Origin: a virus
Taxonomy: Duplodnaviria > Caudoviricetes
IMG/VR virus record: IMGVR_UViG_2834368228_000004
Span: 32,001-96,000 of that record
Strand: one strand, 5' to 3'
Length of the DNA stretch: 64,000 nucleotides
Shown here: one piece after another, positions 43,147-60,653 of the stretch
How positions within the stretch are numbered: the first letter of the stretch is position 1
Layout: each line of letters begins with the position of its first letter
Notes under the pieces: model-generated
The model's input: only the letters and a program-made list of their open reading frames with translations
What the model was told of the DNA's origin: nothing
Databases searched by the model: none
Translations under genes and position numbers: made by a program

Positions 43147-43162
43147 ATTTTATCAATCCATA

Positions 43163-43453
43163 CTAATTAGTAATTTCCTCATTGTTTGGCTTAAAAAATT
43201 CAACACAATCAACTTTAACAATTTTCAAGTCGCTTCTATGTGCTTTAAACTTTTTACCATTTACAGATTTAAAGGTAAAATTATTGTGCTTATTATTATA
43301 GAACATATCTTTATCGAAATGGGGATCAATGTTTTTAAGATACGCTTTAAAAACCATACGTTTACTTCTGTATGTCCATATACTAAGAGTTACAACAACA
43401 TCTTTTGATTTAGATATTTCTCTTAAAAGCTGTTTATAATTATAAAACTGCAT
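43163..43453 (-). CDS. hypothetical basic protein
   Basis: Probable start MQFYNY after AGGA. Confidence 0.5.
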   Translation of the reverse strand: MQFYNYKQLLREISKSKDVVVTLSIWTYRSKRMVFKAYLKNIDPHFDKDMFYNNKHNNFTFKSVNGKKFKAHRSDLKIVKVDCVEFFKPNNEEITN

Positions 43454-51937: not shown

Positions 51938-54900
51938 TTAAGCGCCTAGCTTGATTAGCTTCCCTACTTCTAGGTTAACAGTGCGAGTACCTTTGCCGAG
52001 GTTACAAGCATCTACTGATAACATGAACTTATCATGACCTAGTAGTGGGGAAATGTTGTTTCTTGAGTTATATGCAAAACCTACTTCAGTCTTATTAATG
52101 AATAGCTTATACTTGTCACCTACACCTTGAATAAAGATGCTTTGAGTAGATAAGCCTTCTAATACTGTGTCTAATGTAAACTTCTCTTGAATGTCATCTG
52201 GAATACATACAGCAACAGTGAAGTTATTATCAATCACTTGATTAGATACAATTTGATCTTGCTTCGGTTTATTCTCCATGTAAGAAAGAGTTTGAATGAA
52301 TGCTTCACGTGTAATCGTCCAAGGGAATGAAAGACCTGCATCTTGTTTACGATCTACATATGTTGCATAGTATGCTGCATATCCGATATCTTTAGCTGGA
52401 TACTGGCTCATTAGTTCTGCTACTCTGTCACGAGCTTGTTCAGCAATCGTACCGATGTGAGTTGAAACCATCTCATCGATTTCATTCATTTTAAGTTCAC
52501 GTTCTCCTTCTTCAAGGTTGCCACTCATAATCTTATTCTTATATTCTTCTGCTCCTCTGTATGTTTGACGAACAGCGCCACCGTAACCTGCTTTGATTTG
52601 TTTTACTTGATTCAATAGCATGTTAAAGTAGTTTGGATCTAAGTTGAATGAACTGTTCATCTTAGTAAGCAATGAGTAGCTGTTAGCATCTTGATACATA
52701 ACTTCTATTTTGTTAGTAAGCTCTTTATCTTCAAAGTCTTGTACCATTTCCATTAGTCTAGATAATACGGATCCTACATCATGTCCGTCTTTACCTTTAC
52801 GGCTTGCCAACCAGTTAGGCTTATTCCATACTCTTCTGCCTAATCCTTTATTGAAGTAAGATAGCTCTTCAGGTGGGTTAACCATGAAGTCTAATGTTTC
52901 TTTCATCACTTCTTGATAAGCACCACCGTGTTTAGCTGCATCAATTTCCCATCCTTGTACAAGGCGAAGAATGTTGATCCAGTTTTCATACTTGTTAATA
53001 CGTTGTAGCATATTATCTTTCTCTTGAGGTGATGCATCTTTAATCATATAGTCATAGCCGATACCACGAACACCATCAGCTAAGATACTAGCGATGTTTG
53101 TTGCTAATCCGATTTTGTTAGGCTTCAACGTTCTGATAACATAGTCGATACCTAGTTTATGAATCTCTTCATAAAGAGCGGTTGTTTTCTGTCTATCTGT
53201 GAAAGTAACACGATAGTTGCTTTGGCTAACAACCATGTCAACTGGTAAGCGATACACACCAGTCATTGGCTTAGAGTATGGAACACCATCTCCAAGAAAT
53301 TCTACTTCTCCATTCACATCTGTGAAAGAGATATCCATTAATGGTGGGAATACTTTACGTTGTAATGCTTCTACAACTGCTGGCTCTGTAACAGTTAATG
53401 CTGTATCACCATCGTTGTCTGCTCCACCCATTGCGAATGTAGCAAAGTCATGAACACTCATAACTAGCAAGTTACGGAATCCACCTTTACGAGAAGCTTG
53501 ATTATACACTTCAATACCACGATTACGTAGTACTTGCCACTCACCTTTAGCAATCATTGGATTACGACCAGCCGCTACATACAAAGGTGATTTATCTTTG
53601 TGTGCAGATGGGATGTAAGCTTCATTTGGTTGAATGTGATAGTCACCACGATTAGTAATCATCAGTTGACCTTCATCATTACGCACTTCATATTTTGTAC
53701 CAGCTTCTAGTACAGCATATGGATCTTGAATCATGTAGCGGTAGTGTCCTTCTACTGGAATGTTACCAGTTTTCCACTCTTGAATCTTTTCTTTCAACAC
53801 ATCTAATGCATAACGTTTCATTTGTACATCATCGTAGGACCATTCGAACATATCCAAGAAAGTAGTAAACGTGGATACACGAGATTGATCTAACAGATAG
53901 TGTTCTACTTCTGCATCAAGTAAATCGGAATCAATGACTTTATCTAATCCGACATACTTCTTCATAAGAGATGGATCATGCAATGCATTACCGATTTCAT
54001 CTAAATGTGGTTTCAATACATTCCACAAGTCATTAACATTGAGTGAAGAAGCTTGAATGAATTGATATGGCATATCAGTGTAAGACTTAACTTTACTCAT
54101 TGGCTTGTTGAACATAGCAATACGTAATTGTGGTACAAAGTTAGGGTTAGATTTGAATAGTAACTCAAAGCTACCTTTTACTGCTGACTTAAGTGCAACT
54201 ACATGTGCATCATAATAGCTGCGTAAGTTAGGAACAAAGATCATTAAGCCTTTTACAAATGGAGTAATACGAATTTGCCATGCATCATTGAACTGGCCAA
54301 ACTCCGCTCCAAGTGTATGATACATTTCTTCATCACAGAATAAAGCTCCATCAGCTGCAGTTAGTGTAATTGGATGCTCACTTGCATCGAATACTCTGAA
54401 CTCTTGACGTTCCTTATCCCAAGCACGGTACGTACCAGTGTTGATTTCAACAAAGCGGTCTTCTACCAATGCAATCGTATGAGTTCCACCAGTTAGATAT
54501 TGATCTCCAGTCTCAATATTAGTGACTACTTCGTTACCAAAGCGGACTGTCTTAGATGCAATACTGTTCGTACCAGCTAGTCCTGGACGAGTCATCATTT
54601 TGTCTACATCGATTACATAGTTGCCATCACGATCTACTTTTGCATAAGCTAAGAAATCATGTCCAAGCACACGATATGCATCGATAGGGGACATTACATT
54701 TGTATCAATGAATACTGCTTGCAATAGTCTTGCTTGTGAAGCTGAGCGTAATAAGAAGAATGCATGACTTTCATCACCATGCTCATTCATGTAATAGAAA
54801 CCTTCTTTCATAACTTTCGTACGAAGCTCTACTAATTCATGATCTTCTTCAGTGTAATCCATTTCATCCTCTGGAAGCTCAATGTACAAGTCTGCAAAGA

Positions 54901-55474
54901 AGATGTGACGCATTGGCAGCATAACACGTTGTTTAATCAATTGACCATCCTTCGTGAATTCAATTACTTCAGAAGCGGATGCAAAGCTTTCACTTAGGAA
55001 TGACTCACTGATCTCTTTGTAAGAATCAACATTCACTTCAGTATAATCAATTGTAGAATATACTTTATCTTCACGTAGCTCCATGCTATTTATCTTAGCA
55101 ATAGGAACAAGAACACCTTTACGTGTTGGTGCATATACACGATTAGCTAGTTTGTGTGAACTAACAAACTCTTTGAAGTAGCGAAACTGATTAGATGGTA
55201 CATCAGCAATAGATGGATCTTTAAGAATATCAAGTAGTACATTACCTTTTGACATAGCATTTAATACACGAGCAAAGTTCTTAGAGTTACGTGACTTGAA
55301 TCCTTCAGCAACAGAAAGAGCTGCTAAGATATCTTGTACAGTAAATAGGTATCCATTTTCTTGTAGTAGTGAGCGATTTTCGATAGTTGTGTTCATAGTT
55401 AAAACATCTCCTTTAGTTTGGTTGTTTAATTTAGTTGATAAAGATTTCGCAGTTTGATTTTTCATAGTAATCAT
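51938..55474 (-). CDS. YonO-like single-subunit RNA polymerase (eukaryotic RdRP / double-psi beta-barrel fold)
   Basis: Ordered motifs RSASQAR, KMMTRPGLAGT, ADG, AWQIR...KG, GRNP, GGADNDGD (catalytic DxDGD), IG...N, IDAAKHG. Confidence 0.85.
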   Translation of the reverse strand: MITMKNQTAKSLSTKLNNQTKGDVLTMNTTIENRSLLQENGYLFTVQDILAALSVAEGFKSRNSKNFARVLNAMSKGNVLLDILKDPSIADVPSNQFRYFKEFVSSHKLANRVYAPTRKGVLVPIAKINSMELREDKVYSTIDYTEVNVDSYKEISESFLSESFASASEVIEFTKDGQLIKQRVMLPMRHIFFADLYIELPEDEMDYTEEDHELVELRTKVMKEGFYYMNEHGDESHAFFLLRSASQARLLQAVFIDTNVMSPIDAYRVLGHDFLAYAKVDRDGNYVIDVDKMMTRPGLAGTNSIASKTVRFGNEVVTNIETGDQYLTGGTHTIALVEDRFVEINTGTYRAWDKERQEFRVFDASEHPITLTAADGALFCDEEMYHTLGAEFGQFNDAWQIRITPFVKGLMIFVPNLRSYYDAHVVALKSAVKGSFELLFKSNPNFVPQLRIAMFNKPMSKVKSYTDMPYQFIQASSLNVNDLWNVLKPHLDEIGNALHDPSLMKKYVGLDKVIDSDLLDAEVEHYLLDQSRVSTFTTFLDMFEWSYDDVQMKRYALDVLKEKIQEWKTGNIPVEGHYRYMIQDPYAVLEAGTKYEVRNDEGQLMITNRGDYHIQPNEAYIPSAHKDKSPLYVAAGRNPMIAKGEWQVLRNRGIEVYNQASRKGGFRNLLVMSVHDFATFAMGGADNDGDTALTVTEPAVVEALQRKVFPPLMDISFTDVNGEVEFLGDGVPYSKPMTGVYRLPVDMVVSQSNYRVTFTDRQKTTALYEEIHKLGIDYVIRTLKPNKIGLATNIASILADGVRGIGYDYMIKDASPQEKDNMLQRINKYENWINILRLVQGWEIDAAKHGGAYQEVMKETLDFMVNPPEELSYFNKGLGRRVWNKPNWLASRKGKDGHDVGSVLSRLMEMVQDFEDKELTNKIEVMYQDANSYSLLTKMNSSFNLDPNYFNMLLNQVKQIKAGYGGAVRQTYRGAEEYKNKIMSGNLEEGERELKMNEIDEMVSTHIGTIAEQARDRVAELMSQYPAKDIGYAAYYATYVDRKQDAGLSFPWTITREAFIQTLSYMENKPKQDQIVSNQVIDNNFTVAVCIPDDIQEKFTLDTVLEGLSTQSIFIQGVGDKYKLFINKTEVGFAYNSRNNISPLLGHDKFMLSVDACNLGKGTRTVNLEVGKLIKLGA

Positions 55475-55930: not shown

Positions 55931-56088
55931 TCGATTACATTACTTCTAACCGAATAAACCCCATATCTTGCACGATGTTTCTTGTCATATCCGATAAAGA
56001 TTGAATATAGATAACCAAAGTCATCGTCATAACCTAAATACTCGCCATTTGTTACTAGTCTTCTAAATGAAACTCTCATAGTTAACAC
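55885..56088 (-). CDS. hypothetical protein
   Basis: Small ORF with AGGAG RBS. Confidence 0.55.
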   Translation of the reverse strand: MLTMRVSFRRLVTNGEYLGYDDDFGYLYSIFIGYDKKHRARYGVYSVRSNVIECLITYPVLREEKQK

Positions 56089-56319
56089 TCCTTTTGTTTG
56101 TTTTTAAGTTGATTAAAGTAATACATTTCAAACAGGCATAAGCCTCTCATAGACAGCGAGCGGTCACTCTAAGAGAACCATCTATGGCATCTGTTTAACC
56201 CAATACAGTGGGATGTTCACATGCTTCAACGTGCTGAGTGGTCTAAGACCCATGCCTATCTTCGACCACTACATAGATAGGGTGAGGGGATGTTCCTGAA
56301 GCAACGACAACATAGCTAG

Positions 56320-56805
56320 TTAAGCTATCAATGAATAAGCGAATACATCAAACACTTCACTAAGCCCTACAAAGCCTTCATGCATAACTGTTGATATGAA
56401 GTAGATAGGTGCTATAGCAAGCAAGATACCTGTTGATGATAAGAGACCAACACTTAAATGTTTGAATGCTGTTGCAACCATATCTCTACCAGTAGCTAGA
56501 TGCTTGTATCTGTTGTAGTAGGAGATCATCTTTACTCCTGCATAGAATGTTGCACTAACAGGTATAAACAAGGCTCCTTGTGTGACAAGGCCTGCTGCAA
56601 ATGAAGTTGTTGTCACTAGAGCAGCTGATTTCCAATGCTTAGCCGACAGTTCCTTCACGTTCTTGTAAGCTGAGCCTAGCCCTCGCTTTACAGAAGTGAC
56701 AGCTTTAGATGCCTTAAACTTACTCCAACCTTTCTTCACACTCTCTAAAACATCAGCAAATACATTACCTTTCATGTCTTCTTTCGCTTGTACTGTGATA
56801 ATCAT
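56320..56805 (-). CDS. membrane protein
   Basis: Several hydrophobic segments; AAAGGA RBS. Confidence 0.7.
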   Translation of the reverse strand: MIITVQAKEDMKGNVFADVLESVKKGWSKFKASKAVTSVKRGLGSAYKNVKELSAKHWKSAALVTTTSFAAGLVTQGALFIPVSATFYAGVKMISYYNRYKHLATGRDMVATAFKHLSVGLLSSTGILLAIAPIYFISTVMHEGFVGLSEVFDVFAYSLIA

Positions 56806-56853
56806 GGTAAATCCTTTCTATATGCTCGGTTTTATGTCATGAGCTGGACTAGT

Positions 56854-56922
56854 TTGACTTGTCTTATCAATGCAGGGATAGTCAATCACCTACAGACACC
56901 CCTCCTCTAGGGTGTTTCGACA
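56854..56922 (-). ncRNA. type II hammerhead ribozyme, U3-A8 core variant, with pseudoknot
   Basis: TGTC-GAAA-CACCC..GGGTG-TC^TGTAGG..CCTGCA-TTGATAA-GACA; loop TTGACT pairs with downstream AGTCAA. Confidence 0.85.
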
Positions 56923-57099
56923 TTAAAGGGATATGATTGTGTATCCTTCAGCATCTACTCCAAGATTTACTTCTGCTTTCTTAACCGCATTAATAATCAA
57001 GTGCTGATTGTATCCTCGTTTCATTAAGTCTCCGAAACGAATAACCTTTCCTTGTCCTTTGATTTGCTTGAATAGAGTTACCAGTGTGTTTGTTTGCAT
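56923..57099 (-). CDS. 58-aa hypothetical protein, first gene of the leftward arm; not in the ORF track
   Basis: AAAGGA RBS; MQTNTLVTLFKQIKGQGKVIRFGDLMKRGY. Confidence 0.6.
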   Translation of the reverse strand: MQTNTLVTLFKQIKGQGKVIRFGDLMKRGYNQHLIINAVKKAEVNLGVDAEGYTIISL

Positions 57100-57299
57100 T
57101 CTTCATCATCCTTTTCAATTAGTAGTAGGGGGTGGGGGCGACAAACGCCTATTAGAAAACCCTATTAAAAAAGGTGCTACCCTACGCAATTTTTTTATAA
57201 AAAATGTCCCATATAGGGATTTCCCCATGTTTGTGGGATGACAATTGAGAAAGTTTGTTATACACTGTTTGTAATGCATTACATAAAAGGAGGTAAGTT

Positions 57300-57671
57300 A
57301 TGAGTAGATTAAAGCTTGTGGATTTAGAGTCGGAGTCTGTCGAATATAAGGAATTAAAAAATAAAAAAATATATAGGCCAACTGCCATACCTTATGTGTA
57401 CTTTAATTACTGTTGTGAGAATAAAGGTGACTTCACACTATTGAAATATGACCCTATCTTTGGAACTGATGTCATCATTTCGAAGTCATTAGGTTTTATA
57501 AAGATTCCATATAAACTGTTGGAGAAATTAAAAGCCTGGTATAACAGAAAGCTTATGTATATCGCAATTAACCTTCACAACAAGCGAAAGATTGATTTAC
57601 CTGAAGGAGTTAGGTTGAGCTTATTAGATGTATGGAACCTTAGGAAAGAAAAGAAAAAAGGAGTGAAGTAA
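57300..57671 (+). CDS. hypothetical protein
   Basis: AAAGGAGG RBS; perfect operator at 57270-57283 upstream. Confidence 0.7.
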   Translation: MSRLKLVDLESESVEYKELKNKKIYRPTAIPYVYFNYCCENKGDFTLLKYDPIFGTDVIISKSLGFIKIPYKLLEKLKAWYNRKLMYIAINLHNKRKIDLPEGVRLSLLDVWNLRKEKKKGVK

Positions 57672-60414: not shown

Positions 60415-60486
60415 TGGGATATAGCTCAGCGGTAGAGCAATCGGCTGTTAACCGATAGGTCGTAGGTTCGAAACCTACTATCCCAG
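60415..60486 (+). tRNA. tRNA-Asn(GTT), CCA not encoded
   Basis: Full cloverleaf; ATCGG-CTGTTAA-CCGAT. Confidence 0.93.
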
Positions 60487-60578: not shown

Positions 60579-60653
60579 TGCGGTGTAGCTCAGTTTGTGT
60601 AGAGCGCTTGGTTTGGGTCCAAGAGGTCGCAGGTTCAAGTCCTGTCACTGCAA
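60579..60653 (+). tRNA. tRNA-Pro(TGG), CCA not encoded
   Basis: Cloverleaf; CTTGG-TTTGGGT-CCAAG. Confidence 0.9.

Follow-up and report, generated by a model that had tools for sequence, protein, structure and literature searches.

We analysed a 64-kb stretch of viral DNA (64,000 nucleotides, hereafter the window), in which the genes on the side considered here all lie on the minus strand and start from a divergent region at ~57100–57300. A 58-aa open reading frame (ORF; 56923–57099, minus strand), with no match in Pfam or PHROG, ends in a TAA stop codon at 56925–56923, and this codon directly precedes the first base of a candidate type II hammerhead ribozyme (56854–56922, minus strand). On the same strand follow a near-invariant 26-nt H-type pseudoknot (56824–56849) and a stretch (56803–56819) that holds the Shine-Dalgarno sequence AGAAAGGA (56819–56812) and the ATG (56805–56803) of the next gene, a 161-aa ORF (56320–56805) that is the first cistron past the ribozyme. 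Beyond it come a partly conserved gap of 232 nt, ORFs of 67 and 145 aa, and a gene for an 1178-aa protein (51938–55474, minus strand). Relatives of the 58-aa protein are encoded in two other contigs, namely L001, a viral contig of 191 kb with a provirus classification that was found via this protein (62–64% identity), and L009, a contig of 197 kb (43% identity). In L001 the Shine-Dalgarno sequence and start codon are conserved and a syntenic 161-aa ORF follows them.

The 1178-aa protein matches the Pfam family PF05183 (RdRP, E = 6.9e-8) and contains GGADNDGD, which fits the DxDGD signature by which two-barrel polymerases bind metal. A weak tblastn match was found in Bacillus phage BUCT082 (23% identity) and no sequence match in the PDB. 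Judged by Pfam and motif, the “polymerase” of the original prediction is a YonO-like, two-barrel, single-chain RNA polymerase. That prediction also had the ribozyme punctuating the polymerase operon, of which the shared strand and the synteny leading up to the polymerase gene hold good; the term itself is an overstatement because there is only one hammerhead, and the polymerase starts 1.4 kb downstream of it. From strand and synteny we infer that the ribozyme and the polymerase gene are co-transcribed over this distance.

Several further features surround this gene set. The leader of the 58-aa gene (57125–57150, minus strand) contains a hairpin, GGCG-UUUGU-CGCC, followed by the C-rich run CCCACCCCC, and both are nearly identical in L001 (2950–2975). 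No good sigma-70 promoter was seen near this conserved leader, which may be an operon start signal. Scans for terminators and sigma-70 promoters around the hammerhead returned nothing that would account for the hairpins there. The 232-nt gap (56088–56320, minus strand; L001:3788–4152) has blocks in common with its L001 counterpart, for example UAGAGU-R-ACCGCUCG, and had no match in Rfam; the L001 gap additionally holds a small ORF-like insert. On the opposite strand, ~4 kb from the hammerhead, lies a GOLLD RNA (Rfam RF02032; 61032–61476, plus strand; 205.9 bits, E = 1e-56), just downstream of two tRNA genes (60415–60486 and 60579–60653, both plus strand).

A script that located each element of the ribozyme and printed its pairs recovered the whole of the predicted structure, base for base, from its start immediately after the stop codon to its last pseudoknot base. 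The ends of the RNA enter via stem II (4 bp; UGUC 56922–56919 with GACA 56863–56860), and stems I and III are closed by loops, giving the three-helix topology of type II. The GAAA segment from G12 to A15.1 (56918–56915) leads into stem III (7 bp with a 6-nt loop; 56915–56909 with 56902–56896), which is closed by the required A15.1-U16.1 pair (A56915-U56896). The triplet GUC (56897–56895), which fits the N-U-H sequence required at a cleavage site, places C17 at 56895 and N1.1 at U56894, with the predicted cut between C56895 and U56894, where the original prediction had put it. Stem I (6 bp with a 12-nt loop) pairs UGUAGG (56894–56889) with CCUGCA (56876–56871). The catalytic core strand (56864–56870) reads UUGAUAA in place of the canonical CUGAUGA: U4, G5, A6 and A9 are retained together with GAAA, and positions 3 and 8 are exchanged on both sides and still paired, which bears out the proposed compensatory substitution of U3-A8 for C3-G8. 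The predicted pseudoknot of loop I was likewise recovered, with UUGACU (56880–56885) and AGUCAA (56859–56854) forming 6 bp, in comparison with the at least 4 bp that usually mark the tertiary contact of type II, and it abuts the 3′ side of stem II without a gap. The minimum-free-energy fold computed with ViennaRNA is the same three-way junction, at −21.8 kcal/mol (z = −2.4).

The gene order of L001 is that of the window: a 59-aa gene, a hammerhead, the 26-nt motif, the 161-aa gene and, after two small genes, a large ORF, which takes the place of the window polymerase and runs past the end of the fetched locus. The L001 hammerhead (L001:3183–3254) has the canonical CUGAUGA core, a GUA cleavage site and, in the same place, a loop I pseudoknot (UGACC/GGUCA). 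Between these two sequences, on which the covariation is based, there are four two-sided compensatory changes, namely stem II pair 3 (C-G in the window, U-A in L001), core pair 3-8 (U-A, C-G), stem III pair 6 (C-G, U-A) and one terminal pair in the pseudoknot (U-A, C-G). Another three changes are one-sided and keep the pairing through G-U wobble, none of the pairs formed in both copies is broken, and each copy has one extra end pair without a counterpart in the other (in stem II and in the pseudoknot). A joint change of core positions 3 and 8 with the other core bases fixed is what would be expected under selection for catalysis, and not under decay. In L009 no hammerhead follows the homologous gene, and the ribozyme is therefore lineage-specific and dispensable in the L009 lineage. 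A BLAST search with the locus gave no match among GenBank phages or PLSDB plasmids, the 161-aa protein had no relatives in viral contigs, and alignment of the 58-aa protein found none in metagenome or genome contigs; a protein database contained one copy of the latter, 98% identical.

The 26-nt element, which was no part of the original prediction for this site, starts 4 nt past the end of the hammerhead pseudoknot (56854), ahead of the next ribosome-binding site. It reads GUC-CA-GCUC-AU-GAC-AUAAAACC-GAGC, in which stem 1 is formed by GUC/GAC and stem 2 by GCUC/GAGC, i.e. by the hairpin loop pairing with sequence past an A-rich NUNAAAC linker, and it resembles the coremin and xrRNA-WCC elements of RNA viruses. 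The window and L001 stretches are identical bar one variable position. A scan in which stem 2 was left free returned the covarying variants GUUC/GAAU, GCUU/AAGC and GCUU/AAGU, whose G-U pairs occur on the sense strand only. The motif was present in 77 metagenome stretches and 26 Streptococcus genome loci, and among 65 unique copies there are 58 that have a start codon with its ribosome-binding site downstream on the same strand. Outside the window, the near-invariant pseudoknot (GUC-CA-GCUC-AU-GAC-NUNAAACC-GAGC) and its variants are found at L001:3260–3285, in the contig G002 (L066, L068–L071), and in L073–L175 and L176–L246; the element is thus widespread, in phage contigs, in integrative elements of streptococci and in some contigs that resemble RNA viruses.

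The motif occurs in several distinct settings. G002 (158 kb) has five copies, four of them ~45 nt downstream of promoters of the TGnTATAAT type, and a Shine-Dalgarno sequence follows 4–6 nt after the motif in four of the five, the exception being the most divergent copy. In two annotated Streptococcus loci (L153 and L172) the motif stands before integrative-element genes, beside genes for FtsK-like and sigma-70-region-4 proteins. Ten unique copies in gut-phage contigs carry the variant GUCCAUGCCAUGACGUUAAACCGGCU after a conserved tRNA 3′ end. Three of these loci were scanned for tRNAs; there the sites lie inside tRNA arrays (L177:11354–11375, L198:2607–2628 and L222:5116–5137), and this variant starts 2 nt past the 3′ end of a tRNA-Met. 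Another variant, GUCCAGUUCAUGACUUUAAACCGAAU, is found at L234:1251–1272 (minus strand) in a 3.5-kb contig resembling a small RNA virus, where an ORF of 706 aa lies on one side of it and an ORF for a coat protein (Pfam Viral_coat S domain) on the other; the motif is also present in small contigs of similar kind (L006, L007, L218 and L229). The element was considered as a promoter and rejected on the grounds of its G002 copies, which lie ~45 nt after promoters with a Shine-Dalgarno sequence 4–6 nt behind, and of its G-U covariation on the sense strand. It was likewise rejected as a known Rfam family, there being no match, and as a class 3 xrRNA of the ST9a/SCNMV type, to whose published ST9a sequence it bears no likeness; a literature search for the motif sequence found nothing relevant.

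Proximity to a hammerhead is the exception for this motif. None of the 77 metagenome loci (582 kb) has a hammerhead beside it, the two unique copies out of 65 with one upstream are those of the window and L001, and of 44 other hammerheads only that of L001 stands beside the motif. The adjacency of hammerhead and pseudoknot is new, and among the loci examined it is confined to the lineage of the window and L001.

Taken as a whole, the stretch 56922–56854 of the minus strand is very probably a functional type II hammerhead within an early, polycistronic RNA of a large phage. During folding the pseudoknot, whose 6 bp join loop I to the 3′ tail, would dock stem I against stem II, and the core, GAAA together with UUGAUAA (in which U3-A8 replaces the isosteric C3-G8), would catalyse an internal transesterification after C56895. 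The cut would part the 58-aa cistron from the downstream cistrons. If the RNA cuts, hammerhead chemistry gives the downstream fragment a 5′-OH, and the type II topology places a hairpin at both new ends: the upstream product would finish in the G+C-rich 7-bp hairpin of stem III with a 2′,3′-cyclic phosphate, and the downstream product would begin with its 5′-OH at U56894, base-paired in the stem I hairpin. Past this end the downstream RNA would present first the coremin-like pseudoknot, then the ribosome-binding site with the 161-aa gene, and later the YonO-like RNA polymerase gene. The analysis itself shows the sequence, its fold, its conservation and its covariation; cleavage in vivo, and its consequences for the stability of the mRNA, are what we infer.

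Self-cleavage could also serve the opposite end. The glmS ribozyme is a self-cleaving RNA in an mRNA leader, and its 5′-OH end decides the fate of the downstream message; RNase J1 is said, in work from 2007 attributed to Collins and colleagues, to degrade this 5′-OH product in Bacillus subtilis. A hammerhead that cuts as a negative regulator of this kind would not yield a stable mRNA but expose the downstream message, including the polymerase gene, to 5′-to-3′ decay by an RNase J1-type enzyme, and the sequence itself does not dictate what becomes of the downstream fragment. However, the 6-bp hairpin of stem I would keep the new 5′ end base-paired, and the conserved coremin-like pseudoknot stands between the cut and the ribosome-binding site; both structures are easier to read as protective, and the arrangement is kept in L001. 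The glmS ribozyme is metabolite-dependent and destabilising, whereas for the hammerhead no ligand is implied and the structures downstream of it suggest protection. We regard glmS-like decay as unlikely.

For comparison with other viral type II hammerheads, a pattern derived from the shared stem III, in which all four Y...R core combinations were allowed, returned 57 viral loci with 45 unique canonical-core sites, all CUGAUGA; the UUGAUAA core of the window occurred in none of these 45 other unique sites sharing its stem III. Three matches with CUGAUAA or UUGAUGA cores (two unique, L011 and L045, with L043 a duplicate of L011) have no hammerhead fold and were set aside as chance, as was L016, which has a G at the cleavage position and does not fold as a hammerhead either. 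A further five copies with canonical cores (L037, L057, L059 and one additional copy each in L018 and L048) were beyond our simple parser, either because stem I contains a mismatch or because a hairpin is inserted behind the core, which leaves a tally of 39 canonical viral hammerheads (45 minus L016 and these five). In most of the tally stem II measures 3 bp and stem III 7 bp; stem I has 7–8 pairs, the pseudoknot 3–6 bp, and the cleavage site is GUC in 35 of the 39. A stop codon abuts the ribozyme in 24 of the 39 and is found no more than 9 nt upstream in 31, and the next Shine-Dalgarno sequence is as a rule 1–28 nt behind it. The window copy falls inside all of these ranges but one, the distance to the ribosome-binding site, which from the ribozyme end is about 37 nt in the window (39 nt in L001). 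Most of the tallied ribozymes end a few nt before the next ribosome-binding site, and in four loci (L018, L048, L053 and L061) two type II hammerheads 0.6–3 kb apart flank single genes.

In Rfam the closest family is RF02276 (Hammerhead_II), which a permissive local scan matched end to end with 24.4 bits (E = 0.013 in 601 nt). This score does not reach the gathering score of 37 bits, and a scan at that cut-off did not report the hammerhead; nor was it in the list from a whole-window scan at E ≤ 1, the E-value scaled to the window being ~1. The Rfam match by itself is insufficient to establish the call. Since the canonical ortholog of L001 scores only 29.3 bits, the shortfall is a property of the subfamily as well as a penalty for U3-A8. 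The low score, the two core positions that are off consensus and the absence of a UUGAUAA core from all other members of the sampled subfamily could nonetheless be read as marks of a hammerhead descendant that is catalytically crippled and kept solely as a structured spacer, which might for instance uncouple translation or stabilise the 3′ end of the cistron before it. We find this highly unlikely, because both core changes make up one isosteric pair swap that is known to keep activity (PMC3088659), whereas decay would be expected to give single, unpaired hits in the core; in addition, no damage is seen in the other core bases, A15.1-U16.1, the GUC triplet or the pseudoknot, and there is covariation with L001 in the helices.

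To gauge how often such a structure arises at random, we used a descriptor of our own (GAAA, A15.1-U16.1, N-U-H, a CUGAUGA or UUGAUAA core and contiguous stems) in a strict form, with stems II, III and I of at least 3, 5 and 5 bp, and in a relaxed form with at least 2, 4 and 4 bp. In 300 dinucleotide-preserving shuffles of the 64-kb window, searched on both strands, the strict form had no match and the relaxed form five in total. In the window itself the hammerhead site, with its 4, 7 and 6 bp plus the 6-bp pseudoknot, is the sole strict match. A covariance model trained on 32 other viral type II hammerheads, with the window and L001 copies left out, gave the window site 54.3 bits (rough E = 5e-13), with the next best site in the window at 11 bits, and L001 49.9 bits. 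There is some circularity in the 54.3 bits, since the pattern that collected the training set came from the window site: some 22 positions match by construction, and independent evidence is limited to the spacing and tail together with stems I and II. GAAA, UGAUNA and similar short motifs are common in AT-rich phage DNA and one weak relaxed-descriptor match lies elsewhere in the window, but given the shuffles, the gap between 54 and 11 bits and an orthologous canonical hammerhead at the same position with compensatory changes, a chance resemblance within an intergenic hairpin region is vanishingly improbable and for practical purposes refuted; chance origin of the hammerhead is excluded. The weak match itself (near 43150–43230, minus strand; stems of 2, 4 and 4 bp, a UUGAUAA core) is AT-rich and lies mostly inside coding sequence, and was rejected as a hammerhead at the level of chance.

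The pseudoknot behind the hammerhead invites comparison with coremin (xrRNA-C) and its Watson-Crick variant xrRNA-WCC, which are known from RNA viruses, those of plants among them (Dilweg et al. 2019, 10.1101/522318; PMC10520033; PMC10321173). The element and the Xrn1-resistant coremin motif GUCCGAAGACGUUAAACUAC have GUCC...GAC-NU-N-AAAC in common, i.e. a 3-bp stem GUC/GAC followed by N-U-N-AAAC (GUUAAAC in coremin). The element itself has GUC...GAC-AUAAAAC, and the pattern of GUC/GAC plus UNAAAC has one match in the window against 0.03 expected. As in xrRNA-WCC, the loop of hairpin 1 pairs with the 3′ part of the spacer (stem 2, GCUC/GAGC) to give a small H-type pseudoknot, and as with coremin there are intergenic positions in RNA-virus-like contigs. 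Unlike coremin, the element has an octaloop, CAGCUCAU, that departs from the YGAD / YGNNAD consensus, a stem 2 of 4 Watson-Crick pairs, and a spacer that lacks the CUA essential in the coremin of BNYVV, beet necrotic yellow vein virus, and continues with CCGAGC. A second hairpin common to the copies was not seen by eye, and the flanks downstream of the motif are not conserved. The hosts also differ, being phages and streptococcal mobile elements, for which the relevant nuclease would be RNase J and not Xrn1.

The possible functional coupling of hammerhead and coremin-like pseudoknot is, in our opinion, the most interesting point of the locus. The two might form one mRNA-maturation module, in which a programmed 5′-OH end is made and RNase J-type decay from it is then blocked upstream of the ribosome-binding site; this is a speculative proposal, and a distinctly unlikely one. 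The cut site is 46 nt upstream of the pseudoknot and 75–82 nt upstream of a strong ribosome-binding site, a spacing that lends itself to a concrete model (cut, block the exonuclease, translate) joining two poorly understood phage RNA elements. What precedes the motif is a promoter, a tRNA 3′ end or the cut site of a hammerhead, and because RNA 5′ ends arise at all three, these settings fit an end-protecting role, without being proof of it. If the proposal were true, it would provide a defined and stable message for the early operon leading to the phage RNA polymerase, and would thus bear on how an operon encoding the phage's own YonO-like enzyme is expressed. The pseudoknot would then be a general guard of 5′ ends, used by eukaryotic RNA viruses as well as by mobile elements of Firmicutes.

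As for the ribozyme itself, natural type II hammerheads with a pseudoknot between loop I and the 3′ tail were described by Perreault et al. 2011 (PMC3088659), who reported that fast cleavage requires this pseudoknot, the rate dropping 20- to more than 100-fold when it is truncated. The same work placed type II hammerheads between prophage genes, proposed that they cut long phage transcripts into gene-length mRNAs, and reported U3-A8 in several natural hammerheads, such covariants cleaving in vitro. A descriptor with the U3-A8 core later gave about 1,300 hits in Penelope-like elements of Schistosoma (Cervera and de la Pena 2014, PMC4209133). Hence the type II architecture with its pseudoknot, the place between prophage genes and the natural occurrence of U3-A8 covariation have all been known since 2011, and the core variant of the window is rare but documented. 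Since the tolerance of 3-8 exchanges is reported to depend on context (Przybilski and Hammann 2007), the rate of the window ribozyme may be reduced.

Set against the type II family RF02276, the window ribozyme has the same open stem II, GAAA and (C/U)UGAU(G/A)A cores, A15.1-U16.1 pair and GUC site, the same pseudoknot, at least 4 bp long, by which loop I pairs with nucleotides directly 3′ of stem II, and the same place between co-directional phage genes, directly after a stop codon. It departs from typical members in that its 3-8 pair is U-A and not C-G, in its score under the Rfam gathering cut-off, and in the second conserved RNA element that fills the about 37 nt before the ribosome-binding site. 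With the natural U3-A8 variants it shares the two-sided swap of the sole Watson-Crick pair within the catalytic core. The U3-A8 ribozymes of Schistosoma retroelements are minimal type I hammerheads, however, whereas that of the window is a type II stabilised by a pseudoknot, and unlike in the known variants the swap here lies between two orthologous phage loci (U-A in the window, C-G in L001). The window and L001 therefore make up a natural pair for measuring the cost of the core swap in its native, pseudoknot-stabilised context.
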